From: Candidatus Latescibacterota bacterium
GTDB lineage: Bacteria; Latescibacterota; UBA2968; UBA8231
DNA length: 64,000 bases
Assembly: GCA_965261395.1 (NCBI GenBank)
Contig: OZ253462.1
Coordinates: 4,672,001-4,736,000 of the forward strand
Direction of reading: 5' to 3'
Position numbers and translations under genes: made by a program. Shown piece by piece: positions 7,367 to 60,164 of the stretch (its first letter is position 1; the number at the start of each line of letters is the position of its first letter). Below the pieces are notes generated by a model. That model was given only the letters and a program-made list of their open reading frames with translations, ran no database searches and was not told the origin of the DNA.

Positions 7367-8383
<1,017 letters not shown>

Positions 8384-10467: not shown

Positions 10468-10491
10468 GACGACATCCTCGCTCAGTACGGG

Positions 10492-14987: not shown

Positions 14988-16049
14988 TTAGTGGTGTCCA
15001 AACACGTAGAGGACCCGCTTCTCAGTGGCGACGGTGATGACCTCCTCACCCAAGGACACCGGCGCCAAAACGGGGCCATCCAATCGGTATTTCCACAACA
15101 AGTGCCCGCCTTGGAGATCCAAGGCATAGAGGTAGCCGTCGCTGGAAGCACCATACGCGGTGTGATCCGTGGCGACCGGACTGCTCCGCACCACGCCCTC
15201 GGTGGCAAACGTCCACCGCACTGCTCCAGTGGCCACGTCTAGCCCATAGAAGTGGCGGTCGGCACAGCCGACCACCAACACGCCTGCAGCCAGCGCCAGC
15301 TCCGCAGTCGGCAACGCGCCCAAGGCTCGCTCCCACACCACCCGGCCAGAGTCGCGGCGTGCGGCTAGTACCCGGCCGGAGGCTGTCGCCGTAACTATTT
15401 GTTCATCAGTGGTTACGGGACGAGACCTTATGGCTTCCCCCAAGCTCGTGCGCCAGCGCTCGTGGCCGGTTTCCGCGCTCAGGGCCACCAAGTCCCCGGA
15501 CGCCGTGCCGGCAACCGCGAGGTCGCCGCTCAGCGCCAGCCCGGTCCGCGATAGCCCGCCCAATTCGGCGCGCCACAGCAAATGCCCGTCGGCGAGCCGC
15601 AGCGCCTGCACTGCTCCTTCATCATCAATCGCGATCAGGGTATCGCCACGCACGACCGGCACCTGACAAAACGCACCCTCATGCCGCCAACGCTCGTCCG
15701 CAGTCCGTCGGTCTAAAACCCGTAAGCTAGGTTTGCGGCCCAGCACCCCCAGCGCGTACAGCGCCCCGGCCAACTGCCCGGGGGCACACGCCATCTTGTC
15801 GTATCCGTGCTTCCCCAATTGGACCCCGTTGCGCCGGTCCAGCGCATAGAGGGTCGGCTCGGTGGTCAATTGTAGGATCAGATCCCCGGCAAAGAGCGCG
15901 CCGCCCAGCGGCGAGCTGTCCATTTTGTGCGTCCACAAAAGTTGCAGCGGCGGCTCAACCCCCACCGCGCCATGCCTCGGCTCGCCGAAGTAGAGCACCT
16001 TTTCGCCACAGGCCGCCAAAAGGCAGAATCCGAGCAGGGCGTAACGCAT
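14988..16049 (-). CDS. PQQ-like beta-propeller lipoprotein (BamB-like)
   Basis: Lipobox LAAC; repeated LYALD..TG...W blades. Confidence 0.8.
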   Translation of the reverse strand: MRYALLGFCLLAACGEKVLYFGEPRHGAVGVEPPLQLLWTHKMDSSPLGGALFAGDLILQLTTEPTLYALDRRNGVQLGKHGYDKMACAPGQLAGALYALGVLGRKPSLRVLDRRTADERWRHEGAFCQVPVVRGDTLIAIDDEGAVQALRLADGHLLWRAELGGLSRTGLALSGDLAVAGTASGDLVALSAETGHERWRTSLGEAIRSRPVTTDEQIVTATASGRVLAARRDSGRVVWERALGALPTAELALAAGVLVVGCADRHFYGLDVATGAVRWTFATEGVVRSSPVATDHTAYGASSDGYLYALDLQGGHLLWKYRLDGPVLAPVSLGEEVITVATEKRVLYVFGHH

Positions 16050-35511: not shown

Positions 35512-37202
35512 TAACGGCCCGCAACGCAGCAGATTTTGTCGAAGAGTACGCCACCCTCCTCGAACTCAGTGGGGCCTCCCCCTTCCGGGTCCGCGCCTAC
35601 GCCAACGCCGGGCGCGCCCTCGAAACCATAACGTCCCCTCTCGACGAACTCCTCGCCGCCGGGACCCTAACCGAGGTCAAAGGCATCGGCGACAGCGTGG
35701 CCGAGCTGGTCGCCGAGTTCGCCGACACCGGCACGGCCCAAGCCTATGAAAAGCTGCGGGCCGCAACGCCCGAGGGCCTGCTCGACATACTGCGGGTCCC
35801 CGGGTTGGGGCCGCGCAAGATCAACGCCATCCGCAAGGACCTCGGTATTGAGACCCTCGACGCCTTGGAGCAAGCCTGCCGCTCCGGCCAACTCGCCGCC
35901 CTCAAGGGGTTTGGTCCCAAGACCCAAGCAACCATCCTCAAGGGCGTCGAGTACATCCGCGCCCATGCGGGCCACTGCCACGCCGATGCCGCGCACCAAA
36001 GCGCTCACAGCCTGCTCGCAGCCCTGCGCTCCCACGCGCAGCGCCTCGCTGTCGCCGGAGAGTTGCGCCGAGCACGGGAGACGGTCCAACAGCTCGACTT
36101 CGTGCTCAGCACTACCGACGCCGATGCCGCGAGCGCGGCCTTTGCAGCTCACCCGGATATCGCCGCGGTCCTCGAGCCGAATGTAGGCCGGCTGTCCAAC
36201 GGACTGCAAGCCAACCTGCACATAGTCTCAGACGAAGCCTTCCCCGCGGCCCTACACTACTACACAGGCAGCGAGGAACACCGTTCCGCACTGTGCGCCA
36301 AGGCCGCCGAGCACGGGCTAGTCCTCGACGAACGCGGACTCTGGCGCGGCGACGAGCGCATCGAGTGCGCGAATGAAGCGGCTTTGTTCGCCACCTTGGG
36401 ACTCGCCTACATCCCGCCGGAACTGCGCGAGAACCAAGGCGAAGTTGAAGCCGCGGCCGCCGACGCGCTGCCCGAGTTGGTAACAGCCGCCGACATTCGC
36501 GGCATGCTCCACGTGCATTCGACCTATTCGGATGGAGCCGACAGCCTAGAGGCTATGGCCCGCGCCGTGCAAGAACGCGGCTTTGAGTACATGGGCATTG
36601 CCGACCACAGCCAGACCGCAGCCTACGCCGGGGGGCTTCGCGTTGCAGAGGTCCAGCGTCAGTGGGAGGAAATCGACCGGCTCAACGAGGAATTGGCCCC
36701 CTTCCGCATCTTCAAGGGCATCGAGTCGGATATCCTCGGCGACGGCTCGCTTGACTACGACGACGACCTGCTCGCCCAATTCGACTTCGTGGTCATCTCG
36801 GTCCATTCGCAGTTCAACCTGAGCCGCGACGCCATGACCGCCCGCATCGTCCGCGCCATCGAACATCCGGCTGCCACCATCGTCGGCCATCCAACCGGGC
36901 GCTTGCTCCTCAACCGCGAAGGCTACGCCGTCGATACCGAACAAATCATCGAAGCCGCCGCCCGCTGTGGGGTTGCCATTGAAATCAACGCCCATCCGTC
37001 GCGGCTCGACCTCGACTGGCGGCACGTCAAAAAGGCCCGTGACCGCGGCGTCCAAATCGCCGTCAACACCGACGCCCACAGCATCGCCGGCCTGGATCAT
37101 CTCGGCTACGGCATCGGCATCGCCCGCAAGGGCTGGCTCCGCGCCGCCGACATCCCCAACGCACTCGGCCGCGAAGCCATTGCCGCTTGGTTCCAAAGCT
37201 AA
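35508..37202 (+). CDS. polX: DNA polymerase X / PHP 3'-5' exonuclease (non-canonical polymerase site)
   Basis: FRVRAY, HhH motifs (KGIG, PGLGP, KGFG), YYTGS.EH, IPPELRE; PHP motifs HVHSTYSDG, DHS, HPTGR, NTDAH. Confidence 0.93.
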   Translation: MITARNAADFVEEYATLLELSGASPFRVRAYANAGRALETITSPLDELLAAGTLTEVKGIGDSVAELVAEFADTGTAQAYEKLRAATPEGLLDILRVPGLGPRKINAIRKDLGIETLDALEQACRSGQLAALKGFGPKTQATILKGVEYIRAHAGHCHADAAHQSAHSLLAALRSHAQRLAVAGELRRARETVQQLDFVLSTTDADAASAAFAAHPDIAAVLEPNVGRLSNGLQANLHIVSDEAFPAALHYYTGSEEHRSALCAKAAEHGLVLDERGLWRGDERIECANEAALFATLGLAYIPPELRENQGEVEAAAADALPELVTAADIRGMLHVHSTYSDGADSLEAMARAVQERGFEYMGIADHSQTAAYAGGLRVAEVQRQWEEIDRLNEELAPFRIFKGIESDILGDGSLDYDDDLLAQFDFVVISVHSQFNLSRDAMTARIVRAIEHPAATIVGHPTGRLLLNREGYAVDTEQIIEAAARCGVAIEINAHPSRLDLDWRHVKKARDRGVQIAVNTDAHSIAGLDHLGYGIGIARKGWLRAADIPNALGREAIAAWFQS

Positions 37203-37203
37203 A
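37191..37203 (+). repeat. 13-bp direct repeat TTCCAAAGCTAAA, left boundary of the R-M cassette
   Basis: Identical to 39378-39390; contains the polX stop codon. Confidence 0.85.
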
Positions 37204-37204
37204 C

Positions 37205-38368
37205 ATGACCCGTAGCGATTACCTCTCACAGCTTTTTCGGCGACTGCATACATTTCGTCAGGAAGCCCAACTTGAGCCTGAGCAGGTCGAAAGTAACCTT
37301 GTTTTGGGGCCAGGCTGGATCCATGCGTTCGAGAGCGGAGCGGCCCTCCCCGGTCTTGATGTGGTTATGTCTCTGCTCTCACTCTATGGCAAAACCCTGC
37401 GCGACCTTGCAGAAGGCATAGAAGGGAACGCTCCGTCCATAAAACGCTCAATTACCCCAGAAGAAGTCGACAATGATCTCATTCTTCACTTTACCTATGG
37501 TGAATACGACGCTACGTACCGCCTTGAAGGTGTTACCGTGGAGCAGTTCACAGAAATAGTTCTAACGTTGCGAAATGGGCTCGCTCAGCTTGCTAACTCT
37601 GGGATTGAAGACCAGCGAGTCGAGACGATTAAGATGGAAAGTGTGGCCAATGCATTCATGAAAGCCGTTGAACTCTGGCCCCAAGCTAACCCCTCCGATC
37701 TCTGGTGGTTTCTCGTATATCGCGCCTACTGTGACCCATACAACCATCCTGCCCAGTATGCTCGCTTAGACTTTGCGCAAAGCTGGAAACGAACTGCTGG
37801 TTGGGCCTTGGAGTTGGTTCTCGAAAAACATTACGGTGCTACCCTGGCGAAGCAAGGGATCAACATGGTACGTAAAGATTCCGAGCGTAAGGAGAGGATT
37901 CTTCACGGTATCAACGTTGGTCACCGCCTTGAAGCAGACAAAGTGGATATTATGCTAACGGTCGGCGAGGGCGCAAACGAACGGATGATTGGGGTCGTTC
38001 ACGTCAAGGCGAGTTTTGCGGAACGCCGGACAGACGATGTTCCTATGAGTCAAGCACTTGTTGATGCTAGCTACATTTCCCCACTATGGACGATGGACTG
38101 CAAGAGTTTCCCTGGTCCTGAGCCCATCAATCGCGGAGAATTGGGCAAAATCTTCACCGGAGAAGATCAGGATCAAAGGAACGCAAAGAGAAAAGACATA
38201 GAAAATGACGGCTTTTTCTCAGCGTGCTTTTCCTACAATAAGAACACTCATCCGACTCCTCCCGATACCCCCCTAGCAAAGGCACGGATTTATTCATGTG
38301 ACTTCATCGACCCAGACGATGCTTTCACTAGGTTCGTCGTTTCGGAGAGTCGCCGATTTCGGAAATAA
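37205..38368 (+). CDS. putative type II restriction endonuclease (CCGG-family/BsaWI-like PD-(D/E)XK) with N-terminal XRE HTH
   Basis: HTH segment RQEAQL..EQV...L......I..FESG...P.L; nuclease motifs QSWKRTAG.ALE, DKVD, VHVKASFAERRTDD; adjacent to an MTase; A/T-richer than its flanks. Confidence 0.72.
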   Translation: MTRSDYLSQLFRRLHTFRQEAQLEPEQVESNLVLGPGWIHAFESGAALPGLDVVMSLLSLYGKTLRDLAEGIEGNAPSIKRSITPEEVDNDLILHFTYGEYDATYRLEGVTVEQFTEIVLTLRNGLAQLANSGIEDQRVETIKMESVANAFMKAVELWPQANPSDLWWFLVYRAYCDPYNHPAQYARLDFAQSWKRTAGWALELVLEKHYGATLAKQGINMVRKDSERKERILHGINVGHRLEADKVDIMLTVGEGANERMIGVVHVKASFAERRTDDVPMSQALVDASYISPLWTMDCKSFPGPEPINRGELGKIFTGEDQDQRNAKRKDIENDGFFSACFSYNKNTHPTPPDTPLAKARIYSCDFIDPDDAFTRFVVSESRRFRK

Positions 38369-39232
38369 TTCCAAATTTGGCCCTTCGCTTTCCTCCAAGC
38401 GTTTGTTGGAGGCCCGAACTTGCTCAGGGTCAACTTCAAATCCTATGTAGGAACAGCCAAGGGTCAACGCCGCGGTTCCTGTAGTGCCCGAGCCAGAGAA
38501 CGGGTCCAAGATCACGACGTCTTCTCCACAGGTTCCGTACGCCTTAATGCAGCGAATTGGCAATTCCTTTGGAAAGCGTGAGAAATGCTTGAGCCCGTCA
38601 ATTTTCTCGTTTGCGAACTCCCACACGCTCTTAATCGGAGGCGTTACGCGAAAATCATGCCGCTCGCTCTTTGTCAGCAAGTAAATCGATTCGTGTTGAC
38701 GATGCGGGCGTCGGCAACGGCCCTCTGGCATGGCATTTTTTTTTCGCCAGATCACTTCTCCCCGGAACAAGTAGCCCGCGTCGCAAAGAGAAATAATAAG
38801 ACGATATGGGAGCGCCAGAAGATTGCCATACTGAAGCCACGTTTCATCCTTGTCGATAAACGCTTTTCGTCGCGCCCGTGGTTTGGTGTATGCTGAATTG
38901 TCCTCCGAAAAACCTTGTTTTTTCTCACCTAGGGTGCTGAACTTCCACGCTTTTTGATTCCAGTTCACAGGGGTGTTGTAAGCGTCTCCCATATTAATCC
39001 AAAGAATCCCTTCCGGCCTCAACTTCGGTAAAATCTCTACAAAGGCTTTCGTGAGAAACCGTAGATAATCCCTCGGGTCTTTTTCGATACCGATCCCTTC
39101 TGAGTGCCTTTGCCCCCAATAGGGCGGACTTGTCACAACTATATTCACGGACTCGTCTGGAAGTTGCGGAATCAGTTCTAAACAATCGCCTTCGTGGGTC
39201 TTATTGATCGGGAAAGGCCCGATTTGGTTCAT
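38294..39232 (-). CDS. site-specific N4-cytosine DNA methyltransferase, beta class (SmaI/Cfr9I-like)
   Basis: Motif IV VTSPPYWG precedes motif I DPFSGSGTT; also WINMGDAY, IW.K.N.MPE and HE.IYLLTK. Confidence 0.9.
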   Translation of the reverse strand: MNQIGPFPINKTHEGDCLELIPQLPDESVNIVVTSPPYWGQRHSEGIGIEKDPRDYLRFLTKAFVEILPKLRPEGILWINMGDAYNTPVNWNQKAWKFSTLGEKKQGFSEDNSAYTKPRARRKAFIDKDETWLQYGNLLALPYRLIISLCDAGYLFRGEVIWRKKNAMPEGRCRRPHRQHESIYLLTKSERHDFRVTPPIKSVWEFANEKIDGLKHFSRFPKELPIRCIKAYGTCGEDVVILDPFSGSGTTGTAALTLGCSYIGFEVDPEQVRASNKRLEESEGPNLELFPKSATLRNDEPSESIVWVDEVT

Positions 39233-39366: not shown

Positions 39367-39987
39367 ATGCAGCCCCATTCCAAAGCTAAAGGGCCGCCCC
39401 GCCTCATCGGCTTAGCCGGGCCATCCGGTGCCGGCAAGACCACGCTCGCCCACGCCCTCCAGACTCGCCTACCCGGCTCCGCGACCGTCCTCTCCCTAGA
39501 CGCGTACTACCGCGACTTAGCCGATCTCTCCCCAGTTGAAAGGGCCCGAGTAAACTTCGACGCACCCGAGGCCATGGACCACCAGCGCCTCGCCGCTGAC
39601 CTCCGCCAGCTCGCCGCCGGCCACCGCGTCGAAATTCCCGTGTACGACTTTGCCACCCACACGCGCCAAGCGACCCAACGCCACCTCACCCCCACCGACT
39701 TCCTGCTCGTCGAGGGCCTCTTTGCCCTCTACTGGCCCGACATCAACGCCCTCTACCACCTGCGCCTCTTCGTCGCCGCCGCCGACGCGCTCTGCTTGGA
39801 GCGCCGCCTCGCCCGCGACCGCGTCGAGCGCGACCGTTCCCCCGCCTCAATCCGCGCCCAGTACCAAGAGCAGGTCCGCCCAATGTACCGCCGCCACATC
39901 CAGCCCACCGCCCGCTACGCAGACCTGATCCTCGACGGCAGCACGCCCACCGAAGAACAGGTCGCGGCTGTTCTAGACGCTTTGTAG
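39367..39987 (+). CDS. udk: uridine kinase
   Basis: IGLAGPSGAGKTT, DAYY, NFDAPEA, PVYDF.TH.R, VEG, RR..RD..ER, V.PM....I.P...YAD. Confidence 0.9.
   Translation: MQPHSKAKGPPRLIGLAGPSGAGKTTLAHALQTRLPGSATVLSLDAYYRDLADLSPVERARVNFDAPEAMDHQRLAADLRQLAAGHRVEIPVYDFATHTRQATQRHLTPTDFLLVEGLFALYWPDINALYHLRLFVAAADALCLERRLARDRVERDRSPASIRAQYQEQVRPMYRRHIQPTARYADLILDGSTPTEEQVAAVLDAL
39378..39390 (+). repeat. 13-bp direct repeat TTCCAAAGCTAAA, right boundary of the R-M cassette
   Basis: Identical to 37191-37203; lies within the first codons of udk. Confidence 0.85.
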
Positions 39988-40055
39988 GGGAAAGCCTTGT
40001 GGTTGCCCTCATGTCTGGCAAATAATTGTAGGGGCGACCGGCCGGTCGCCCCTAC
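39984..40055. repeat. two GTAG-type REP elements between convergent genes
   Basis: GTAGGGGAAAGCCTTGTGGTTGCCCT (39984-40009, imperfect) and the perfect 28-bp palindrome GTAGGGGCGACCGGCCGGTCGCCCCTAC (40028-40055). Confidence 0.8.
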
Positions 40056-41992
40056 TAAAACGGCCCGGCGTGGTGCGAAGGCTCGTTGGCGTAGCGCTGG
40101 GTCTCCAGATCGAGGGTGATTTCGCAATGGGGGGGTACAGTGATACTCAGGTGTTTGCCATCAACGGTTATTTGGCGCTCTTCGGTCTCCAAGGGCGGCG
40201 CTGCGTACGTGCCGGCGTAGCCACCCATCCAGCCCGGATACTCGCTGGTGCGGCTTTGATAGGTAGCCCGGCCAAAGCGGTGCTCGCCAAAGGCCCCGCC
40301 CTGAATGACCAGTTCCCGGCCCTCGTTGTGGTTCAAATTGACCAAGCGCACGACCGTGCGGTCCGCGGCGAGCTTTTCCACCAAGGCACCGACGTCTTCG
40401 GGTAGGCCGGGGCGGCGGCGCTGGGCGTCAAAGTAGCGCAGGCGGGCGTGCAGCAGGCCGCCGTTGTAGATAGGCTGTGGGCCGCCCATAGTTAGCTGGA
40501 TGAGCGCTTCAGAGGAGACCGGATTGCCCCATTGCCAGTGGTGTACGTGGTGGCGGGTACCCACGTCTTGGTCGACGCGCATTTGGGCCAAACGGCGGCC
40601 GGCCACTTGGTACGTGGCCTGCAACATTTGCTCTGGGTAGGTCGGGTTGGCTCCGGCCAGAAAGCGCACCCAAGGGGCCTCGTGGCCCGAGTCCTCTTTG
40701 TTGTGGAAGGGGAACACCGCGGCCCAGTCGAACGCTTCTTTTTGCCGAATGGCCTCCATGCGCTCCCAGTCGCCCTCGTCCATGGACAAATTCCACAGCG
40801 TCACCGAGTACACCGGACTCATGGGCTGCCAGTCGAACCAGCCAGCATCGCCGTAGCGGTAGGGCACCAAAAAGGTTTCGCGCTGTTCGCCCATAGCGGC
40901 AAATTGGCTTGCCCAGCGCTCGGCCACGCTCATGTACTGGTCGCGGATATCCTCCATGCGCCCTTGTTCCAAGATGCGGTCCATCTGCTGGCGCGGCAGG
41001 TCGAGATAGGCGCGGTCGCGGGTCAACAGGTAGGCGTTGGCCGCCGCGTCGAGGGTGGCTTTCTGCAAGGTCAAAAATCCGTGCGGAAAGGTCCAGCCGT
41101 AGCGCCCGCCGTACCAGTTGCCAGCGCAGTATTCGCCCACTTGGCCCGACAGGCCAACGTTGTCCGGCAACATGCCGTCGTTAGCCTGTGCCCGCTCCAC
41201 CCAAGCGTCGGTGTATTCTACGACCCAAGCGCGGTATTTTTCGTCGCCGGTGATCAGGAAGGCGTTGGTAGCCAGTGAGGTGACGGCCAAGTTGGTCGGG
41301 GTGTCGCCCTGACGCCAGCGGTCGAACAGGGTCTGCCCCATCAAGCGGGCTTTGGCCGGGTCGGCTAAGTCCTGCACGCAGGTGATGCCAGGCAAGTCGA
41401 AAAAGGGTAGGTTGTACACTTCCATGCTGCCGCCCAACGGATTGTAGCTTTGGTGGTCGCGCTCGGTTAGCGGGGCAAAATAGGGGCCGTGGCTGCCGTT
41501 GAGGCCCGAGCGCAGGATCTTGTGCTCGGGGTCGTAGTTTTGCGCTTCAGGGTCTTCGTTGAGGTAAAAGCCGGCAAAGCGGCGGGCCCGTTCGACGCGC
41601 CGGGGGGCGTTGGGGTGGGCCAAGCACAAATGGTAAAAGCAGATGTCGCTTTCGGCTTGGTGCATCTGGTCTTCGCGGATGCCGTATTCCTTGCTAACAG
41701 TGCCCAAGCGGGTCAGTTGGCGAGTGATGGCCTCCCATTGGCGGTCGGCCAAGTGCAACAGGTGCTCGCCGCCGCCCATCAGATAAACGAGCGGCCAGTT
41801 GAAAAATGGCTCGTAGAAATCGTCGGGGCTACCGCCGCCCCACTCGTCCTGCCAGATGAATTCGCCGTCCTCGCGAGTAAAGTGGTCGAGAAAGGGCTGC
41901 ACCGATTGGTCCAAGGCGTCGAAGAGGCGGCGCTGCCACACGGCCCAATGGGCCGGCGCGTTGAGCGGGGTATTGGCGGTCAAGCTTTTCAT
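40055..41992 (-). CDS. conserved hypothetical protein (645 aa), possible alpha/alpha-barrel carbohydrate-active enzyme
   Basis: Long ORF with host-like codon use and an upstream promoter; Trp/Tyr/Asp-rich helical segments (DDFYE.F.NWP, KYRAWVVEY.DAW). Confidence 0.7.
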   Translation of the reverse strand: MKSLTANTPLNAPAHWAVWQRRLFDALDQSVQPFLDHFTREDGEFIWQDEWGGGSPDDFYEPFFNWPLVYLMGGGEHLLHLADRQWEAITRQLTRLGTVSKEYGIREDQMHQAESDICFYHLCLAHPNAPRRVERARRFAGFYLNEDPEAQNYDPEHKILRSGLNGSHGPYFAPLTERDHQSYNPLGGSMEVYNLPFFDLPGITCVQDLADPAKARLMGQTLFDRWRQGDTPTNLAVTSLATNAFLITGDEKYRAWVVEYTDAWVERAQANDGMLPDNVGLSGQVGEYCAGNWYGGRYGWTFPHGFLTLQKATLDAAANAYLLTRDRAYLDLPRQQMDRILEQGRMEDIRDQYMSVAERWASQFAAMGEQRETFLVPYRYGDAGWFDWQPMSPVYSVTLWNLSMDEGDWERMEAIRQKEAFDWAAVFPFHNKEDSGHEAPWVRFLAGANPTYPEQMLQATYQVAGRRLAQMRVDQDVGTRHHVHHWQWGNPVSSEALIQLTMGGPQPIYNGGLLHARLRYFDAQRRRPGLPEDVGALVEKLAADRTVVRLVNLNHNEGRELVIQGGAFGEHRFGRATYQSRTSEYPGWMGGYAGTYAAPPLETEERQITVDGKHLSITVPPHCEITLDLETQRYANEPSHHAGPF

Positions 41993-42043
41993 GCGGTAGC
42001 GCTCCTGAGTAGTTGCGGCGGGGTTGCCACTTCTGCGCGGGTG

Positions 42044-42072: not shown

Positions 42073-42167
42073 GCAGCTTGACGGAGCGGAACGAGGCGGT
42101 TTATTTGCGCCTTGCCGAGGTCGTCTTCCGAGTGGGCGACAAAAAACCGCTGATTGGAGAAGGGTGT

Positions 42168-42614
42168 ATGCGCCGCAGTATGGGAATTGCCCTGTGGAGC
42201 GTGGTCCTGTTGGGGGCGGCCGGTTGCACGCCCGACCTGCCCCCAGGACCGCTGCGCATCCAAGTCACCGGAGAAGAGTACATCTGGCAATTCCGCTACC
42301 CAGGCCCCGACGGTGCCTTGCAGACCGACGACGATATCATCAAGCCGGGAAAGGAGTTACATCTACCGCTTGGCATGTCGATTGAACTCGAACTGACCAG
42401 TCGAGACTACATCTACACCTTCGCCCTACCCCATCTCGACCTACATCAGGTCGCCGTGCCCGATTTGACCTTTCCGCTGACTTTCGTCCCACAGGCCACC
42501 GGCGTATTCGCCTTTGTCGGCGACCAAATGTGCGGCTTTGAACACGAGTCGCTCAACGGCCGCGTGGTAGTCGAGTCGCCAGCGGCTTTCGTCGATTGGT
42601 TGGAGAGGCCGTGA
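42168..42614 (+). CDS. cytochrome c oxidase subunit II-like cupredoxin lipoprotein (stand-alone)
   Basis: Start at ATG 42168; lipobox AAGC; I.VTG..Y.W.F.YPGPDG, L.LP.G..I.L.LTS.D, CG..H. Confidence 0.75.
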   Translation: MRRSMGIALWSVVLLGAAGCTPDLPPGPLRIQVTGEEYIWQFRYPGPDGALQTDDDIIKPGKELHLPLGMSIELELTSRDYIYTFALPHLDLHQVAVPDLTFPLTFVPQATGVFAFVGDQMCGFEHESLNGRVVVESPAAFVDWLERP

Positions 42615-42709
42615 TAGGTTTGGGGAAAATTCAGTAACCGTGACGAACAACTACTGTCCGAGTACGTCACAGCGTCGAAGCCTATCGGCAGAGGACGACA
42701 CGAGAAATT

Positions 42710-43315
42710 TTAAGACCGGCGCAGCGTGTCAATGAGCCGTCGCGCATGGCAAGAGGCTTCCACCACTTTACTCGGATCCAAGCATCCAAGAAGGTCAAAC
42801 GAATGCCGACCCTTCCGGTATGTTCCTTTACCTTTAGAGCACGACCTTGTCGCCTGTTTCAGCGCTGGTTCAAGGTCATCTTTTGCGATGGCCTCCACAT
42901 CGTCTCGCGCAGATAACGCGGCGGCGTTGAAATCCTTGCCAAAATAGTCACCCAAAGATTGCCGGTCTGCGACGAACCAGGCTTCCATGCACTGCACCAT
43001 GAGTTGTGCGCTGTCATCCACGGCGGCCGAGGGCTGGGTCCATTTATCGCGTTTCTTTAGGTGCTCCCAGGGGCTATCGCCGGCTGCGACTGCGGCCTCA
43101 CTATCTACCAAGAGAACGATAAAACTGTCGTCTTCGGCTTGACCAATAGCCGTACAAAATTGGTCGTATGCTCTTTGTCGGGAACCGCAAGCGATAACGC
43201 GCGGCATGCGGCCCTCAAGCCCGGCCTTGCTAAAAAACTCCCTGAAACCATTGCGACATTGTCTTCTTAATTGATTAGAGTCTCCACCACCCTCGACATA
43301 TACCTTGATGCTCAC
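42710..43315 (-). CDS. DUF4276-like TOPRIM-fold protein
   Basis: VYVEGGGD, ACGSR, LLVDSE, MVQCMEAWF.AD, Y.KG.HS; GTGA coupling to the upstream ATPase. Confidence 0.75.
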   Translation of the reverse strand: MSIKVYVEGGGDSNQLRRQCRNGFREFFSKAGLEGRMPRVIACGSRQRAYDQFCTAIGQAEDDSFIVLLVDSEAAVAAGDSPWEHLKKRDKWTQPSAAVDDSAQLMVQCMEAWFVADRQSLGDYFGKDFNAAALSARDDVEAIAKDDLEPALKQATRSCSKGKGTYRKGRHSFDLLGCLDPSKVVEASCHARRLIDTLRRS

Positions 43316-44538
43316 CAAGGATTCCCCCCAATCTCGCCACTGCTCCAGAGGTCACCGAGCCGGTAGTTCTCCAACCAAGCGGCCATTTTCTTTTCGTCGA
43401 GACGGCGCATCACAGTCTGCCCGTCGCGCTTTTCACAAACCACGATACTCCACCATTCATTGGTCAGGGCATCGACGAGCATGTCCGAATGGGTCGTTAC
43501 AATTAACTGGCTGCGTTCGGACGCTTCAAGCAACAACTTGCTCACCGTCGGCAGTATGTCCGGATGCAGGCCCAGTTCGGGTTCCTCGATACAGATGAGG
43601 GGCGGCGGTTGCGGGTGGCAGAGCACGGCGAGCAAACAGAGGTACCGCAGCGTACCATCCGAAAGACGAGTAGCCGGTATGACCACGTCGCCTTCCTCTA
43701 AGAACAGTTGGACCGTACTACCCTCAATCTTGACGTGGAAATCGGTTATGCCTTCGTAGAATTTGCTTAAAGCGTCCAGCAGACGCCGCTTTACCGCTGG
43801 CTCGCCTTGGAACCTGTTCAACACCAAGGCTAAGTTTTTCCCGTCTTCTTGCAGGAAATCGTTGGGAAGGTCGGCCTTCTGCGGCAAACGCAGTGGGGAA
43901 TCGCGCCCAAGCGACCACTCGCGATAAATGCGAATGCGGCTCAATACCTCGCCGAGGTACGTCAGTTCGGGGTATTGGTCGGGATCTTTGCGTTGGGACA
44001 GAATGGACTGGTCCGGTTTAATCTCCTCGGGACGAAAGTCGTACCCCAGCCGAGGACGAACATGAGGGAACTTCGCCTTTACGGTAGCCAGTATCTCCGG
44101 ACTCAAGTCATCCTCATCCTTAAAAGTGAGAAACGCCCGCCCGCCCTTCTGATTGTAATAGATATACGGCTCCTCATGTCCTTCATCACTCTGTTCGTTC
44201 TCTATCCGCTCTTCGATCAGTTCAAATCGCTGGCCGCGCTCGGCAAAACCCAGCCGGTATCGCAACGCCTGCGGCCCTTGTGGGTTCTCCACAATGGCCT
44301 CGATATGGGCAGTACCCTCCGGTTTTCCCCGCCAGATCCAATCGTGGATACCCCCGCCCTCACGAATAGGTGCGGCCAAATCTCGCGGAGCCGACCGGAG
44401 GATATCGATGCTCTCTAGAAGATTGGACTTCCCCGAACCATTGGGGCCGATCAATACATTTAGCCGCTTGAGTTCGAGTCCTCTGGAGTCGGGGCCGAAT
44501 GAGAGCAGGTTGGTCTGTTTGATACGACGAATGAGCAT
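43312..44538 (-). CDS. ABC-type ATPase (AAA_21/AAA_15 family)
   Basis: Walker A GPNGSGKS, signature LSDGT, Walker B/D-loop IEEPELGLHP, H-loop TTHS, tail LGDLW.SG.IGG.P. Confidence 0.9.
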   Translation of the reverse strand: MLIRRIKQTNLLSFGPDSRGLELKRLNVLIGPNGSGKSNLLESIDILRSAPRDLAAPIREGGGIHDWIWRGKPEGTAHIEAIVENPQGPQALRYRLGFAERGQRFELIEERIENEQSDEGHEEPYIYYNQKGGRAFLTFKDEDDLSPEILATVKAKFPHVRPRLGYDFRPEEIKPDQSILSQRKDPDQYPELTYLGEVLSRIRIYREWSLGRDSPLRLPQKADLPNDFLQEDGKNLALVLNRFQGEPAVKRRLLDALSKFYEGITDFHVKIEGSTVQLFLEEGDVVIPATRLSDGTLRYLCLLAVLCHPQPPPLICIEEPELGLHPDILPTVSKLLLEASERSQLIVTTHSDMLVDALTNEWWSIVVCEKRDGQTVMRRLDEKKMAAWLENYRLGDLWSSGEIGGNPW

Positions 44539-44563
44539 ATCCTACCTTCACAATCTCCAGTAG

Positions 44564-45214
44564 TTAAGAGCTTTGGCTACTGGGAAAGAACAACCGCTTC
44601 AGCCAATCAGCGAGAACATCTACTTCTGTAACACTGGGATCAAGGAAGCAGGCACTAATGGCCGTCCCGAAAGGCCGTCCCGGCTCTTCCTGCCAAGCAA
44701 GCCAAGTATGGATGACCGCCTTTGGCTCAGCTAGTTGCTTGAAACGCCGCTCGCCTTCAGGGATAGCTGCCACACTGGCCTTAGCATGGTCAAAAAGAAT
44801 ATTAGGTTGCGGAACAAGGAAGTGCAGGAAATCCTCCAAGATTCCACTTGTCTGGTTATTCGGCATAATCCAGACGCCCAATCGCGGTAGATAACTTCCT
44901 GCCGGAGGATCGAGGATCGTTCCGTCCGGGTCTGGTTGATCAGGCACATTTTGGTATCCGAAATCGGTGATTCGATCTCGTATCGACTGCCAACGGGCGC
45001 TTATGTCCGTATCGGCATCAATGACTACCCCAATAGCGTCGCCCTCCTGGATCAATAATGGGAGTCGGACCCCAAGGTTCTCAATGAGTTTTATGTCATT
45101 GCCACAGTTCTCCACTTCGTCGAGATGGGGAATACCGTGATTCCCACAGATATGCTTCAGGACGTGCTCGTCGTCGGTGCCCTCCACCAAGAGGATTTTC
45201 CTCCCATTTGCCAT
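44564..45214 (-). CDS. DUF3226-like TOPRIM-fold protein
   Basis: LLVEGTDD, GVVIDAD, GVWIMPNN..SG.LEDFL, KA.IHTWLAWQ.EPG. Confidence 0.78.
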   Translation of the reverse strand: MANGRKILLVEGTDDEHVLKHICGNHGIPHLDEVENCGNDIKLIENLGVRLPLLIQEGDAIGVVIDADTDISARWQSIRDRITDFGYQNVPDQPDPDGTILDPPAGSYLPRLGVWIMPNNQTSGILEDFLHFLVPQPNILFDHAKASVAAIPEGERRFKQLAEPKAVIHTWLAWQEEPGRPFGTAISACFLDPSVTEVDVLADWLKRLFFPSSQSS

Positions 45215-45215
45215 A

Positions 45216-46328
45216 TCAGCGCACCTCGATTTGGTCGCGGGTTGCTATGGCAAGTTCATCTTCTGATAGCACAGTGGGAATAATGTCCTCACCCCTGCGA
45301 GCCAAGCGTATAAGCACCCCCTCTTCAGGCGCTTCCGCCGCCGCTTTCTGAAACGCCTCGACCGCGTCCCAACTATGGGACGTCGCAAAGACTTGAATAT
45401 CGAGCTTTTGCGCCAACCGGAATATCGTGCGCCACACATCCAACTGCACGGTGTGATGCAGACCGTTTTCAAACTCATCCACCAGCAAAAGTCCCCCGCG
45501 AGCATTGACAAGCGAGAGAATGATTCCAAACAGCCGATTCAGTCCGTCGCCAAACGAGCGCAGTGGAATAGGCCGTGCGATATTGTCTGCTCGTACAATG
45601 GCGGTAAGCTTTCTGCGAGTGCTGCCAACCATGGAAACGGCAGAGATCTGAGGACTGATTATGTGCAACGCTTCAACGACATCCTTTTCCCTATCAGATA
45701 GCGCGATTTTATCCCACAATGGCCCCAACGCTCCTGTGCTTTCTCCGCTGTAGGGACTGACGAAGATACAGGACATCCGGGTTCCATTGGATGCTTCAAA
45801 ACGCGCTCTGTGCATCGGATGAAGGTATCTGCCAAAACGATCAAGCCGATGGGCTTTTTTTGTGTCTTGTGTCTCGACGATCAAAGCAGCTATACCGTCT
45901 GGTTCTAGTTTGCCAAGAGGGACCAACCGATATTGTCCGTCCGAGTCGGATTCCTCTGATAGCCAATCCAAGCATATTGTCATGCTTATTGGGCTCAACT
46001 TGCCACTAGTTGAAATAGCGATCGGCTTAGGGCTCTCTGAAAGCAGAGGGAATCCGTGGAACAGCCCAGAGACCTGAAGCAAGCTATCGGGGTCAGCGGG
46101 GTGTTCTTCTTCCTCTGCTCCCTCAATATTTTCTTCACGGTGTCTGACTATGTCGTAAATCACGTCAGGCGCGGCATTGTTTGCGAGAATACGCAGCCCT
46201 TCAAGAACAGATGATTTTCCGGCGCTGTTCTTTCCTGTAATCAGGTTCACGCGCCCCAAGCCACAGATGGTCAACTCGCGGAATACGCGGAATCGCTCCA
46301 GCGTTATGCTCTCAATTTTGAGGCTCAT
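45216..46328 (-). CDS. ABC-type ATPase (AAA_15/AAA_21 family)
   Basis: NLITGKNSAGKS, signature FGDG, LLVDEFENGLH, FATSHS, ends IEVR. Confidence 0.9.
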   Translation of the reverse strand: MSLKIESITLERFRVFRELTICGLGRVNLITGKNSAGKSSVLEGLRILANNAAPDVIYDIVRHREENIEGAEEEEHPADPDSLLQVSGLFHGFPLLSESPKPIAISTSGKLSPISMTICLDWLSEESDSDGQYRLVPLGKLEPDGIAALIVETQDTKKAHRLDRFGRYLHPMHRARFEASNGTRMSCIFVSPYSGESTGALGPLWDKIALSDREKDVVEALHIISPQISAVSMVGSTRRKLTAIVRADNIARPIPLRSFGDGLNRLFGIILSLVNARGGLLLVDEFENGLHHTVQLDVWRTIFRLAQKLDIQVFATSHSWDAVEAFQKAAAEAPEEGVLIRLARRGEDIIPTVLSEDELAIATRDQIEVR

Positions 46329-46377
46329 TGCATTCCCCTTTCACTAGGGTACTTCGTCCATTTCTTCATCTTGCGAC

Positions 46378-46407
46378 AATATACGCGAACTGCTCGAACT
46401 GCTTCAA
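46378..46407 (-). promoter_or_regulatory. putative promoter of the ATPase/TOPRIM operon (TTGAAG-18-TATATT) with a tandem 9-bp repeat in the spacer
   Basis: CGAACTGCT occurs twice in tandem at 46386-46403, overlapping the spacer and the -35 element. Confidence 0.45.
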
Positions 46408-46463
46408 CCGTCGCCAAGATGGATGCGTTCATCCACTTCCCCGCCCTAGCCGTCACCCTCCCC

Positions 46464-47519
46464 TCAGTCCAGCCGTATCTCCCCGCCCGCTTCTTGGCTC
46501 CGATAGATCCCATCGAGGATTTTCATCACCTGTAAGGATTGTTCCGGCGGCACCGGCGAGGGCCGCCCTTGGGCGATCGCCGCGGCGAACTCCACGCATT
46601 CCTGCGCGTGGGCTTCGAGGCCGTCGTACATCAGCATGAGCTTGCGGTCGTACTGCTGGCGGGTCTCGTTGTTGCTCTCGCAAATCGAGCACTCGGGCCA
46701 ATGCGCCCCGCCGCGAGTGCCGTAGAGCCACATCTGCATGTCCTCGCCTTGGACATTGTGGTGCAAAAGCCAGCTCACCTCCAGCATGAGCGTTGCGCCG
46801 TTGTCAAAGCGCACAAAGGCCGCGGCAAAATCCTCGACATCGTAGTGAGATGGGATCGGCTGGCGGCCCCATTGGCTGAAAGCCCCTTCTTGGTGCGCCA
46901 ATTCAGCGCGGGCCACGCCCGAAATGGCCACCGGCTCGGGATGCCCCATAAACCACAAGGTCAGGTCGAGAATGTGAACCCCAATGTCGATGCAGGGGCC
47001 GCCGCCGCTGTGCTCCTTGAGAATAAACCCGCCGCCGACCGGCGCGCCGGCCCGGCGCAGCATCCAACTGCGGGCGTGGTAGATGTCGCCGAGCGCGCCT
47101 GTGTCCAACTCGGCCTTCAGCGCGCGGGACGAGCCTTGAAAGCGAAAGTGCTGCGCCGTCATCAGCTCCTTGCCCGAGGCATCGCGCGCCGCAATCATCT
47201 GGCGAACGTCCTCGGGCGTGGGGGCCAAAGGCTTTTCGCAGATCACGTGCTTGCCAGCCGACAGCGCGGCAATGGCCAACGGAGCGTGATACATATTGGG
47301 CGTGCAGATGTCGATAATGTCGATATCTGAATCGCTGAACAGCGCCTCCGGGTCGGTGTGCAGCTTGGTGACCCCGTTTTCTGCGCCAAAGTGCTGTAGC
47401 GCGTCCTCGCTAATATCGCTGCCGGCGATCAGTTCGGCCTCGCTAGAAGCCTGCCAGCCGGGGAGATGCGTGCGGGCGATCCCGCCAACGCCGACGATAC
47501 CTACTTTGAGCTTGCTCAT
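46464..47519 (-). CDS. Gfo/Idh/MocA family oxidoreductase
   Basis: GIVGVGGI, ICTPN..H, GKHVICEKP, GGG..IDIGVH.LD. Confidence 0.92.
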   Translation of the reverse strand: MSKLKVGIVGVGGIARTHLPGWQASSEAELIAGSDISEDALQHFGAENGVTKLHTDPEALFSDSDIDIIDICTPNMYHAPLAIAALSAGKHVICEKPLAPTPEDVRQMIAARDASGKELMTAQHFRFQGSSRALKAELDTGALGDIYHARSWMLRRAGAPVGGGFILKEHSGGGPCIDIGVHILDLTLWFMGHPEPVAISGVARAELAHQEGAFSQWGRQPIPSHYDVEDFAAAFVRFDNGATLMLEVSWLLHHNVQGEDMQMWLYGTRGGAHWPECSICESNNETRQQYDRKLMLMYDGLEAHAQECVEFAAAIAQGRPSPVPPEQSLQVMKILDGIYRSQEAGGEIRLD

Positions 47520-47574
47520 GGTTTATCCTTTTTTCGATTGTGGTTTGATATACAGCAAAAAGCTGTGTTTAGGT

Positions 47575-48327
47575 TCATATCCGCGTCAGGGCTTCCGCCG
47601 GCATCCAACCGCCGAGGCCGTTGGCCAGCCGCACCAGCATCCATTCCCCCTCCTGCCGCACCAAGCGCACCTTGGTGCCCTCGTGCGCGACAAAAACTTC
47701 CGTCTGCCCGAGGTCAGGGCCGGAGTGCGCGCGTGCCTCGACAACTGTGACGATGGCTTCGCTCGTCTGCGCCTGATGGCGCAGGCGCGTCCCCAGCCAC
47801 AGCGCGGATCCAACGCTCAGCCCCGCACAGAGCAAAACCCCGACTAGCCACAGCGCCCCGGGGCGCGTCTGCGCAAACAACCAACGCACCCCCAAGACAA
47901 AGACCGCGAAAAACGCCACGGCGAACAGCAGGCTGAGCTGGTTGAACGTAGGCCAAAAATAGGCGGCTACCAGTGCGGCTACCAGCGCGTTGAGGCCATC
48001 CTCGGTTTGTGGGTCGCGGTCCTGCTTCACGAGGTTGGCGAAGCGCAGATTGGCCTCGATGTCCTCGTCGTGCGGTAGCAAGCGCCGCGCCCGCTCATAC
48101 CAGAGAATCGCCTCGCCCAGCTTCCCGGACTTGAAGCAGGCATTGCCCAGATTGTAGTAGATCCGAGCGTCTTGCACCCCGGAATCCACCACCTCCAAGT
48201 AGCTGCGCCGCGCCGCCGCAAAATTCCCGTCCCGATAGAGTGCGTTGGCCTCGTTGTACTGCCCAGCCGTGGCCCCGGCGTGGAGTTGGGTGCCCAACAG
48301 GAGCAACAGCGCCAGTGTGCGCATCAT
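47575..48327 (-). CDS. batE: BatE-like TPR + SH3 protein
   Basis: YYNLGNA.FK.G.LG.AIL.YERA..L.P.D.DI..NL, two TM segments, HEGTKV...W..V.L.NG..GW. Confidence 0.82.
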   Translation of the reverse strand: MMRTLALLLLLGTQLHAGATAGQYNEANALYRDGNFAAARRSYLEVVDSGVQDARIYYNLGNACFKSGKLGEAILWYERARRLLPHDEDIEANLRFANLVKQDRDPQTEDGLNALVAALVAAYFWPTFNQLSLLFAVAFFAVFVLGVRWLFAQTRPGALWLVGVLLCAGLSVGSALWLGTRLRHQAQTSEAIVTVVEARAHSGPDLGQTEVFVAHEGTKVRLVRQEGEWMLVRLANGLGGWMPAEALTRI

Positions 48328-50105
48328 ATGCGTTTCTCCAAACCCGCGATCACCTCCTCGGCCAAGCGCTGTGCGGCCGCCCGGTCCGTCGGCGGGCCGC
48401 CCGCGGGCGCAAAGCGCGCAAAGTCGCAGCGCGTCAGCAGGTCGCGCAACGCCGCAGTCGTCTCGGGCTCGACTTGGCGCGCCGTCAGGGCCTCGGTACA
48501 GACCTCAATGGTCAGGCCGGCGGCGGCGAGGTTGAGGCGGTCGGCCACGAACTCCAGCACCGCGGCGCGGACCTCGCCGTAGAACTCGGCCTCGGTGCCG
48601 GCCTCAAGCAAGTCATCGGCGCGGGCTAGGCGGCGTTCAGCCTCGCCTTTGGCCCGGCGCTGGCGCGCATACGCAACATCGCCCTGCAAGCGCCGCTGGT
48701 GGCGTTGCCACAAAAGCAGGGCCAAGAAGGCGATGGGCAGCACGCCCTGCAAGGTCCAAAACCAATAGCTGTTGTATAACATGGAGGCCGCGCCGAGGAC
48801 CTCGGCGTCGGGCTTGATGTAGCGGATGTCCTCCCCGACGACCTCGATGTCGCGCCGGCTCAACCCGTAGTTCACCCCTTCTTCCTCGGCACTCCCCTCG
48901 CTGTGAACGGTGATGGGCGCGGATTCGAGCACCTCGTAGCGCGCTTGGTGTGGGTCGAAGTATGCAAAGCGCAACGGCGGGATGTTTAGGGTGCCGCCCT
49001 GCTCGGGAATCAAGATGTACTCGAAGAGGCGGCGGCCCCCGTACACGCCGTTGGTGATCCGCTCTTCTTGTTCGACCTTGGGGTCGTAGAGCTTGACGCC
49101 AGCGGCGACATCGACTTGCAGAGGCTGCACCGCGGCCATGTTGCCCTCGCCCTCGATGAGGACTCGCAGCGTCACCGGATCCCCGACCGGAACTTGGGTC
49201 GGCTGGGCCGCGACGCTGAGTTGGAAGCGCCCGACCGCGCCGGTAAATTCCGCAGGGCGGCCCTGCTCTGGCAGCGGCAGGGTCTCGATTTGCAATTCCT
49301 CGCTTTGCAGGAGCACCGAGCGCGAGCGGCCAAAAAACGGATCGCCGGCGAAGAAATCGTCGAGCACTCCGCCGCGACGCGAGCGCTGTTGGGGAATGTC
49401 GCAGGAAACGGCCAACGTGCCGACGGCGTGGGTACCCGCACTGGTGGGGAAAAGGGCCACGCGCCGCAGCGGCGCGACGTTGAAGGACACGCCGCCGCGC
49501 ACCTCCTGATGGGCCTCCAGTTGTTGGGCGACAAAGAGGTCTTCGGTCCAGAACCCGACAAAGGTCGGCAGCTTGTTGAAGCTGACGTTGTGCGGTTGGA
49601 TGCGGTAGAACAGGTCGTAGGATACGGTGACCTGCTGCCCCACATACGCTCGCTCGTGGTCGGCGCGCGCTAATACGAATATGGGGGGGTCGTCTGTCTG
49701 GCCTGCTTGCGAGCGGCTGGTGCCGCGGACGATCTCGACGGTAATGGGCTTGGTCTCATAGCGCTCGTCGCCCATTTCCAGTTGGAGCGGACCGATTGTG
49801 AAGGTACCGGCCTGCTTGGCATAGAGGACGTACGTTAACTCGCGGGTGAAGCTGACGTTGGAGAAGTTGCTCATCTCCACCTGCGTGCTAGTCGCGGGCC
49901 CCTCAACGTGGAAATCCTTTAGGTTGAACGCTGGCGTCACCTGGCCCACTTGCTCGTCGGAGGTGATGCGGAGCGTCAGGCGAATCGGCTCGCCCTGACT
50001 AGCGCGCGTGCGATCGACGGACGCCTCAAACTGAATCGTCGCCGCCGCAACGCTGGATGCCGCAAGCACCCAGAGTACTAGCGGGATAGTCAGACGCGTG
50101 CTCAC
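48324..50105 (-). CDS. batD: BatD family protein
   Basis: ASVDR, YVGQQV, LP.F.GFW, F.GAVG.F, G.GN, YFDP, DIRYIK. Confidence 0.88.
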   Translation of the reverse strand: MSTRLTIPLVLWVLAASSVAAATIQFEASVDRTRASQGEPIRLTLRITSDEQVGQVTPAFNLKDFHVEGPATSTQVEMSNFSNVSFTRELTYVLYAKQAGTFTIGPLQLEMGDERYETKPITVEIVRGTSRSQAGQTDDPPIFVLARADHERAYVGQQVTVSYDLFYRIQPHNVSFNKLPTFVGFWTEDLFVAQQLEAHQEVRGGVSFNVAPLRRVALFPTSAGTHAVGTLAVSCDIPQQRSRRGGVLDDFFAGDPFFGRSRSVLLQSEELQIETLPLPEQGRPAEFTGAVGRFQLSVAAQPTQVPVGDPVTLRVLIEGEGNMAAVQPLQVDVAAGVKLYDPKVEQEERITNGVYGGRRLFEYILIPEQGGTLNIPPLRFAYFDPHQARYEVLESAPITVHSEGSAEEEGVNYGLSRRDIEVVGEDIRYIKPDAEVLGAASMLYNSYWFWTLQGVLPIAFLALLLWQRHQRRLQGDVAYARQRRAKGEAERRLARADDLLEAGTEAEFYGEVRAAVLEFVADRLNLAAAGLTIEVCTEALTARQVEPETTAALRDLLTRCDFARFAPAGGPPTDRAAAQRLAEEVIAGLEKRI

Positions 50106-59231: not shown

Positions 59232-60164
59232 TTAAGCTGCTACCTCCTCGCTAGTCAGGCTCAGGAAAATGTCTTCGAGGGTCATGTCGAGCGGCCGCAA
59301 TTCGCGGAGGCTGAAGCCGCTTTCCACGACCTTGCGGGTCAGGTCGTCGCGCACGTCGGATCCGGGCGCGCTCGTTACCACGTACGTGCCCTCCTCGCCA
59401 CTGGTTTCCACCTCCAGCACGCCCTCTAGCTGGCCGATCATGCCCAGCACCTGCTCGCTGGGGCCGTCTATGTGGGCGCGCAGCACTTCGCCCTCCTTGA
59501 GCTGGGCCATGAGGCTTTCGGGCGTGCCCTGGCCGGCGATGCGGCCGTTGTGGATGATCGCCAATTGCCCGCAGGTCATGCTGACCTCCGGCAGGATGTG
59601 GGTGCTGAGAATGACCGTGTGGTCGCCCCCCAGCCCCTTGATGACCTCGCGGATCTCGATGATCTGCTTGGGGTCGAGGCCCACAGTCGGCTCGTCGAGG
59701 ATCAGCACCTCCGGCTCGTGGACGAGGGCCTGGGCCAAGCCGACGCGCTGCCGGTAGCCCTTGGACAGGTGGCCGATCACCGTGTGGCGGTGGTCGGCGA
59801 TGCCGGTTTTTTCCATGGTGTCGTCGATCCGGCTGTTGAGCGCCGCGCTGGGCACGCCCTTGATTTTGGCCACGAAGCGCAGATAGGCGTTTATCGTCAT
59901 ATCGTGGTAGAGCGGCGGCTGCTCGGGCAGGTAGCCAATGCGCTTGCGCACCTCCATGGACTCTTCGATGATGTCGAAACCAGCGACTTTGGCTTCGCCC
60001 TGCGAAGGCGGCAAATAACAGGTAAGCATGCGCATCGTCGTGGTCTTGCCCGCGCCATTCGGCCCGAGGAACCCGAGGATGACGCCCTTCTCAACGCTGA
60101 AGGACACATTCTCCACGGCGACTACATCTCCGTAGTGTTTGGACAGTTCGCGTACTTCAATCAC
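59232..60164 (-). CDS. ABC transporter ATP-binding protein (GldA-like)
   Basis: GPNGAGKTT, LSKGYRQRVGLAQA, LILDEPT.GLDP, STHIL.EV. Confidence 0.92.
   Translation of the reverse strand: MIEVRELSKHYGDVVAVENVSFSVEKGVILGFLGPNGAGKTTTMRMLTCYLPPSQGEAKVAGFDIIEESMEVRKRIGYLPEQPPLYHDMTINAYLRFVAKIKGVPSAALNSRIDDTMEKTGIADHRHTVIGHLSKGYRQRVGLAQALVHEPEVLILDEPTVGLDPKQIIEIREVIKGLGGDHTVILSTHILPEVSMTCGQLAIIHNGRIAGQGTPESLMAQLKEGEVLRAHIDGPSEQVLGMIGQLEGVLEVETSGEEGTYVVTSAPGSDVRDDLTRKVVESGFSLRELRPLDMTLEDIFLSLTSEEVAA

Follow-up and report, generated by a model that had tools for sequence, protein, structure and literature searches.

The block holds four closely packed genes

We analysed a 64,000-nucleotide (nt) stretch of contig OZ253462.1 from a Candidatus Latescibacterota bacterium (hereafter the window), which carries a block of four genes at 42710-46328 that an earlier note, here called the original prediction, had read as two ABC-type ATPase plus TOPRIM-like pairs and as a candidate uncharacterised anti-phage system. 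The open reading frame (ORF) listing of the window gives four ORFs in this block, all on the minus strand, which we denote in gene order by letters: A for ATPase-A, B for the DUF3226 protein, C for ATPase-B and D for the DUF4276 protein.

45216..46328, minus strand: gene A, ATPase-A, 370 amino acids (aa); ABC/SMC-type ATPase (AAA_21/AAA_15), PDC-M38A, AbiLi-like
44564..45214, minus strand: gene B, DUF3226 protein, 216 aa; TOPRIM-like candidate nuclease, PDC-M38B
43312..44538, minus strand: gene C, ATPase-B, 408 aa; ABC-type ATPase, HEC-01A, distant from MAD3
42710..43315, minus strand: gene D, DUF4276 protein, 201 aa counted from the GTG; TOPRIM-like, HEC-01B
46378..46407, minus strand: sigma-70-like promoter match upstream of ATPase-A, 9 of 12 consensus positions; unproven

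Read along the minus strand, A and B are 1 nt apart (TGA-T-ATG), B and C are separated by a spacer of 25 nt, and C and D overlap by GTGA, or by TTGGTGA if the TTG start of D is used; ORF listing and junction reading thus recovered the four genes with the sizes and gaps originally described. The D ORF extends to 43318 with the TTG start (202 aa, as compared to 201 aa from the GTG at 43315), and the GTG is favoured because most full-length homologues begin MSIK.... The block is also A/T-richer than its flanks, as had been noticed: its G+C content is 0.50-0.56 over 42500-46499 versus 0.62-0.67 in 39500-41999 and 46500-49499. While the proposed promoter site does exist (46407..46378), we found two sigma-70-like sites in the region against 2.5 +/- 1.6 expected from shuffled sequence, and since this is no higher than the shuffle frequency, transcription of the block from one promoter is unproven.

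Both gene pairs match catalogued defence candidates

Pfam places both ATPases in AAA_21/AAA_15, the 216-aa protein in DUF3226 (1.4e-67) and the fourth protein in DUF4276 (2.6e-17), in agreement with the family likenesses first suggested for the two small proteins. ATPase-A carries Walker A at G32-S39, Walker B at D284-E285 and the H-loop at H318, all invariant in an alignment of 58 orthologues, and ATPase-B carries the corresponding motifs GPNGSGKS, LICIEEPE (in which Glu replaces the Walker B Asp) and TTHS; reading and alignments therefore bear out the claim that both ATPases retain all three motifs. The two ATPases are alike only around the P-loop, and so are not recent duplicates of each other. 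The acidic motifs ascribed to the partners are likewise conserved in alignments. The DUF3226 protein has LLVEG(E11)TDD and D66-A-D68, with E11 invariant and D66 nearly invariant in 135 sequences; in the DUF4276 protein the motifs are YVEG(E8)GGD and D71-S72-E73, and among 38 sequences no variation is seen at D71-S72-E73, E111 and K168, with E8 present in at least 90%. Many DUF4276 homologues in the databases have lengths of just 161-165 aa and align to 81-82% of the query (window 43207-43318 encodes the N-terminus); they fit a start at the internal Met37, which loses the Glu of the VEG motif. These short versions probably reflect miscalled start codons, the true start being likely a GTG or TTG that overlaps the upstream stop codon.

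When searched with the PADLOC models, ATPase-A matches PDC-M38A (1.8e-87, residues 5-370 of 370) and the DUF3226 protein matches PDC-M38B (7.2e-49, residues 6-209 of 216); the two genes lie side by side, 1 nt apart and on the same strand, as the PDC-M38 definition requires. For the second pair the matches are HEC-01A (1.7e-174, ATPase-B) and HEC-01B (6.1e-81, DUF4276 protein), and the GTGA overlap makes the two genes neighbours, as required for HEC-01. Judged by these model matches, both pairs are already catalogued as PADLOC candidates and the block is not an uncatalogued system; the novelty initially claimed for it falls, all the more as the DUF4276 family has a biochemically characterised relative in MAD3-MAD4. 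PDC-M38 is one of the 'guilt-by-embedding' candidates of Payne et al.; PDC and HEC candidates alike owe their definition to a position inside known defence systems. HEC-01 (Hma-embedded candidate 01) is described in a preprint as pairing an ABC ATPase with HEC-01B, a TOPRIM-like protein that has a conserved metal site. While HEC-01 was originally found embedded in Hma, the C-D pair here is not embedded in Hma: HmaA, HmaB and HmaC gave no match among the 50 other window ORFs at E <= 1e-12. A search of article texts gave no mention of PDC-M38 among the papers listed, and DUF3226 is not mentioned in the searchable paper texts. The DUF4276 protein is absent from the protein atlas, as is its homologue P0161.

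The general class that had been invoked, an ABC-type ATPase with a small TOPRIM-like partner as in PARIS, OLD and AbiL, fits both pairs, and the individual members of this class resemble them to different degrees. PARIS likewise combines a separate ABC ATPase with a small TOPRIM nuclease, and its AriA models match weakly (1.8e-23 for ATPase-A and 1.7e-37 for ATPase-B), far behind PDC-M38A and HEC-01A. We detected no DUF4435/AriB match in either small protein (Pfam and PADLOC, E <= 0.01). OLD and Gabija GajA share the ATPase class and a TOPRIM-type nuclease, but there the two are fused, whereas here they are separate genes, without a GajB-like helicase. The AriA, GajA, Old and PtuA models all give much weaker PADLOC matches, confined to the ATPase parts. 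The small proteins do not belong to DUF4435/AriB, nor are they fused OLD proteins, so the block is not PARIS, Gabija or OLD itself. The first pair also resembles AbiL of Lactococcus in its ATPase: ATPase-A matches the AbiLi model PDLC02336 over its full length (3.2e-62, profile positions 2-340 of 340). AbiLii gave no match to the DUF3226 protein, for which two PDC-M38B models are the only matches at E <= 0.01.

The second pair has a relative in MADS of P. aeruginosa, in which MAD3-MAD4 likewise consists of an ATPase and a DUF4276/TOPRIM-like protein encoded by separate genes. In the published descriptions, DUF4276 is a member of the TOPRIM superfamily and the family of Mad4; MAD3-MAD4 forms a 2:2 ATPase-nuclease heterotetramer that has ATPase activity and cleaves plasmid DNA, with an acidic pocket that holds Mg2+; and deletion of mad3 or mad4 weakens defence by MADS. 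The pocket residues of MAD4 (D12, D81, E83, E119, E121 and K164) resemble D12, D71-x-E73, E111 and K168 of the DUF4276 protein when compared by pattern, unaligned. The system itself differs: ATPase-B scores 96.3 bits against the NCBIfam MAD3 model, whose cutoff is 420, and no other MADS or Hma core genes are present in the window.

The ATPase-A and DUF3226 genes are strictly coupled

To see how often the four-gene order recurs, we took the best 80 loci of 588 relatives retrieved with the DUF3226 alignment and searched them with the four window proteins. In 76 of the 80 loci, spread over more than ten phyla, the DUF3226 gene has an A-type ATPase gene on its upstream side, with an estimated gap of -8 to +68 nt in 75 of them and of 1,739 nt in the remaining one (L019). 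The other four loci comprise three with at most 104 nt of upstream DNA and one degraded fusion (L043). In contrast, the HEC-01 pair adjoins A-B in a single locus, L001, which is also the closest relative, although at least 2 kb of sequence is present downstream of the DUF3226 gene in 70 of the 80; a DUF4276 profile built from 38 homologues matched L001 only, even at E <= 10. The suggested four-gene order is thus not that of a conserved four-gene system. Degraded copies of the A-B pair occur. In L043 (4903-6597) the first ~68 residues of the ATPase are fused to the DUF3226 portion, in L019 (6272-9630) a truncated ATPase lies 1.7 kb from the DUF3226 gene, and in L077 (8959-9639) the latter gene is broken up into two ORFs.

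The A-B relatives are patchily distributed across phyla at 40-70% identity, and the DUF3226 family as a whole counts 2,877 representatives of 50%-identity clusters at E <= 0.001. Nine plasmid records have a match, and the four inspected all carry the ATPase and DUF3226 genes without C-D. On a 6.4-kb ColE-type plasmid the pair is the sole cargo apart from mobilisation genes, on a 13-kb plasmid it sits beside replication genes, and on another it adjoins a BrnT/BrnA toxin-antitoxin pair. In phages we detected no match to the DUF3226 protein, and in plasmids or phages none to the DUF4276 protein. On a 396-kb Plesiomonas shigelloides plasmid (L082, NZ_CP027853.1, 6856-8600) the pair lies downstream of genes for phage tail components (tape measure, tail protein X, VgrG/Pvc8-family), some 3.3 kb away, and may be prophage-borne.

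We next consider the neighbourhoods of 21 of the 80 loci, a non-random sample picked for long flanks and taxonomic spread, in which 159 neighbouring ORFs were compared with Pfam. In three of these loci (L039, L047 and L076) the A-B pair is located inside a complete Hma system, with HmaA, HmaB and HmaC each matched at E = 0 by PADLOC. It thereby takes the same embedding slot in which HEC-01 was discovered. In L047 (495-12418) the pair lies between HmaB and HmaC, and a HEC-09 module is embedded as well; in L076 (4239-13256) it lies between HmaA and HmaB, and the HmaB ORF also holds an IS200-like Y1_Tnp domain. In the betaproteobacterial L039 (6373-9621), where HmaB is split into two ORFs, a HEC-01A-type ATPase gene (6e-155) stands directly upstream of A-B inside the Hma system; neither the DUF4276 profile nor the locus searches detected a DUF4276 partner for this orphan ATPase. 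Outside Hma, L069 has a HindIII-type restriction-modification (R-M) system about 2.5-5.5 kb from the pair, and L016, L018, L045 and L055 have PIN, TIR or Uma2 neighbours. The Hma-embedded loci speak for a defence association of A-B; 13 of the 21 neighbourhoods hold housekeeping or unknown neighbours only.

The second pair comes and goes at one insertion site

The three loci L001, L002 and L003 also belong to Candidatus Latescibacterota and show conserved synteny with the window (blastn, 84-90% nucleotide identity), which allows the same site to be compared between genomes. Two segments matter here:

46452..46557, no strand: 3' end of the MocA-family oxidoreductase gene, duplicated in L002 (L002 repeat comparison)
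42613..44560, no strand: variable segment with C-D, present in the window and L001, absent from L002 and L003 (blastn and junction alignment)

L001 carries all four genes, which are 87% (A), 85% (B), 86% (C) and 80% (D) identical to those of the window. In L002 the A-B pair is intact and C-D is missing; behind A-B, the 3' end of the upstream oxidoreductase gene is present once more, so that 98-nt direct repeats (7715-7812 and 9657-9754, 93% identical) flank the A-B cassette of 1.9 kb. These repeats constitute an insertion footprint. L003 also has an intact A-B pair without C-D; here A-B is fused to the last ~70 nt of the DUF4276 gene, so that the L003 DUF3226 protein ends in ...FFPSGPK. This 3' remnant indicates that C-D was deleted from a four-gene ancestor. 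C-D is thus gained and lost independently of A-B. As for the order of events, A-B would have arrived first, downstream of the MocA-family oxidoreductase gene; C-D would have been inserted later, 4 nt after the DUF3226 stop codon, replacing most of the right-hand repeat, and would have been lost again in L003. The locus offers a natural comparison of A-B-C-D (window and L001), A-B (L002) and A-B with a D remnant (L003), and presents ATPase-TOPRIM modules as exchangeable cassettes piling up at one site. L003 contains two further segments without a window counterpart, of ~2.5 kb (10151-12654) and ~2 kb (15809-17809), at sites that correspond to 42110-42195 of the window and to the R-M cassette described below; they look like additional variable inserts.

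These comparisons bear directly on the choice between two stacked modules and one four-component system that had been left open, and they favour the former. That the four genes act as one cooperative system of two mutually dependent modules we consider improbable. Such a system could look to the same-strand tight packing with only 25 nt between the pairs, to the roughly equal divergence of all four genes from L001, and to the HEC-01A-type ATPase next to A-B in L039; it also has a precedent in MADS, where the MAD3/4 and MAD7/8 modules share one operon, both are ATPase-associated and both are required for defence. The block moreover seems to recur within the lineage: 13 contigs, four of them of 4.5-7.2 kb, are apparently common to the DUF3226 and DUF4276 homologue lists (matched by size only), which suggests that the four-gene arrangement is common there. 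However, this pattern is in keeping with a single, vertically inherited locus and not with independent recurrence; C-D adjoins A-B in 1 of 80 loci, L002 and L003 keep A-B without C-D, the four inspected plasmid records carry A-B alone, and HEC-01 itself is defined as a two-gene unit.

A second possibility is that the pairs are selfish, addiction-type modules that stabilise mobile DNA, in which the ATPase would restrain the nuclease and cells that lose the cassette would be poisoned. This would explain why A-B is the only non-mobilisation cargo of the 6.4-kb plasmid, lies beside the replication genes of the 13-kb plasmid and next to BrnT/BrnA on another, why most chromosomal copies are solitary among housekeeping genes, and why HEC-01 gave no defence in the published test. 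It accords less well with the clean loss of C-D in relatives, where deletion has been tolerated, with the Hma-embedded copies in 3 of the 21 sampled loci and with the resemblance of ATPase-A to AbiLi, a component of a validated abortive-infection system. Addiction and defence roles can, furthermore, coexist. We regard an addiction role as unlikely, if the least unlikely of the alternatives considered here.

Least probable is a housekeeping function in DNA repair or recombination, with RecF/Rad50-like ATPases paired with a nuclease. The ATPases do show weak N-terminal matches to RecF, Rad50 and SMC models, but all fall far below the curated cutoffs; and a patchy distribution across phyla at 40-70% identity, low G+C content together with an insertion footprint, and presence or absence that varies even among close relatives are not what a housekeeping gene pair would lead one to expect.

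Predicted fold and partner binding of the DUF3226 protein

The DUF3226 protein was modelled from an alignment of 135 sequences taken from the 50%-cluster representatives, yielding a model with a mean predicted local distance difference test score (pLDDT) of 96.4 and a predicted template-modelling score (pTM) of 0.91. Among its PDB matches, four of the top five are C-terminal TOPRIM regions of OLD proteins from Xanthomonas and Burkholderia (6njx, 6njw, 6njv and 6nk8; probability 0.92-0.98, template-modelling (TM) score 0.41-0.48, E 0.008-0.015); retron Eco2 is the fifth, and PH0156 is also among the best matches. AbiLii is reported to superimpose on the OLD nuclease 6NJV, and the best PDB matches of the DUF3226 model are related OLD entries. 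In the model, E11 is placed just after strand 1 and D66-x-D68 just after strand 3. The fold thus leans towards TOPRIM, as first supposed, on the strength of the best-matching structures; it is not firm, because no PDB match reaches E <= 0.001, and the scores are weak. Nuclease activity of the protein is presumed here.

Comparison of the DUF3226 and DUF4276 profiles by hhalign sets VEG and DxD of the former in register with VEG and DSE of the latter at E 0.001 and a probability of 21% (2.3% with shallow alignments), a likeness between the two families that we take as a hint only. Profile searches of PDB sequences with the two proteins returned nothing significant; the DUF3226 profile weakly touches the LLVEG motif of AriB (E 0.14). 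The best match in these searches, an engineered repeat protein, was discarded as spurious.

The cognate pair was also modelled, as had been recommended: the complex of ATPase-A and the DUF3226 protein is predicted with a score of 0.78, as compared to 0.00 for the best of three controls. A score of 0.78 is reached by 116 of 157 solved complexes and by 2 of 215 mismatched pairs, although, with our own alignments used here, this calibration is rough. At least 96% of contacts are shared between runs, and the pLDDT of the partner is at least 86. The predicted interface brings residues 341-369 of ATPase-A, its C-terminal tail, together with residues 35-57 and 108 of the DUF3226 protein; in the alignment of 58 orthologues E368 and R370 of this tail are invariant and I367 and V369 nearly so. 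The prediction supports binding of A to B rather than demonstrating it. For the DUF3226 family, these models provide the first hypotheses on structure and interaction: the core may be TOPRIM-like, with E11 and D66-x-D68, and may dock on the invariant C-terminal tail of the ATPase.

Two separable modules with a putative sensor-nuclease mode

The reading that we favour, with a probability of about 0.68, is that the block consists of two modules, each of two genes, separable and alike in architectural class, set head-to-tail at one insertion site and working in an ATPase-nuclease sensor mode. The first would be ATPase-A with the DUF3226 protein (PDC-M38, its ATPase AbiLi-like), and the second ATPase-B with the DUF4276 protein (HEC-01, belonging to the Pfam family of MAD4). 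In each, the ABC/SMC-type ATPase would hold a small, TOPRIM-like, metal-dependent nuclease in complex; on sensing a phage-derived cue the ATPase would activate or release the nuclease, which would then cut DNA (as do MAD3-MAD4, OLD and GajA) or tRNA (as does AriB of PARIS), and so stop the infection. A sensor-nuclease mechanism of the PARIS, OLD and MAD3-MAD4 type is the best-supported one for each pair, and it is by analogy with these systems that a trigger, a substrate and an anti-phage outcome are proposed for both modules. The general picture of ATPase-nuclease defence modules would be unchanged.

Several results weigh against this reading. In the one published test, in E. coli, HEC-01 did not protect against any of the phages used, and 13 of the 21 sampled A-B neighbourhoods are of the housekeeping-or-unknown kind. 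As for the partners, every TM score of the DUF3226 model against the PDB is below 0.5, with nothing at E <= 0.001; a first model, built from 40 sequences that were all at least 64% identical, had a pLDDT of 64.9 and gave an uninformative fold search, and it was replaced. The TOPRIM nature of the DUF4276 protein is in turn taken from the family literature and from its conserved E8 and D71-S-E73. Separability is also touched: since the four genes are tightly packed and about equally diverged from L001, there is room for co-transcription and some cooperation between the pairs, and the HEC-01A-type ATPase beside A-B in L039 is a second, independent co-location.

A bolder extension of the two-module reading, which we hold to be a long shot, is that in this Latescibacterota lineage a HEC-01 pair has been captured directly behind a PDC-M38 pair to give a dual-branch system in which one module backs up or gates the other (compare MADS), and that DUF3226 would represent an unrecognised TOPRIM nuclease family docked through the invariant ATPase tail.

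The restriction-modification cassette and other neighbours

The only other defence-like genes in the 64-kb window belong to the R-M cassette, which does lie about 3.5 kb from the block, as had been noted:

37187-39232: type II R-M cassette (REase_II 5.9e-41, MTase_II 1.5e-53), 3.5 kb from the block

It consists of a helix-turn-helix plus REase_II gene and a convergent N6_N4 methylase gene, at a G+C content of ~0.50. L001 has no such cassette, and differs there by a clean 2.17-kb indel (L001 15684-15696); L002 retains only remnants, namely the 5' ends of both genes and a 46-nt piece (13431-13476). The cassette is a variable, decaying islet of its own. We considered and rejected a functional tie to the block, since relatives retain the block with the cassette missing or decayed; the role as a backup to R-M that had been suggested for the four genes is accordingly dropped, L001 having all four without it.

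Between the R-M cassette and the block lies a 645-aa ORF (40055-41992, minus strand) that matches no Pfam or PADLOC family and is conserved in L001-L003. Further away, an ORF at 59235-60164 (minus strand) gives a partial 'mad3' PADLOC match (4.7e-25) over residues 130-206 only; since it stands beside an ABC-transport auxiliary gene, it most likely encodes a generic ABC ATPase rather than a defence protein.

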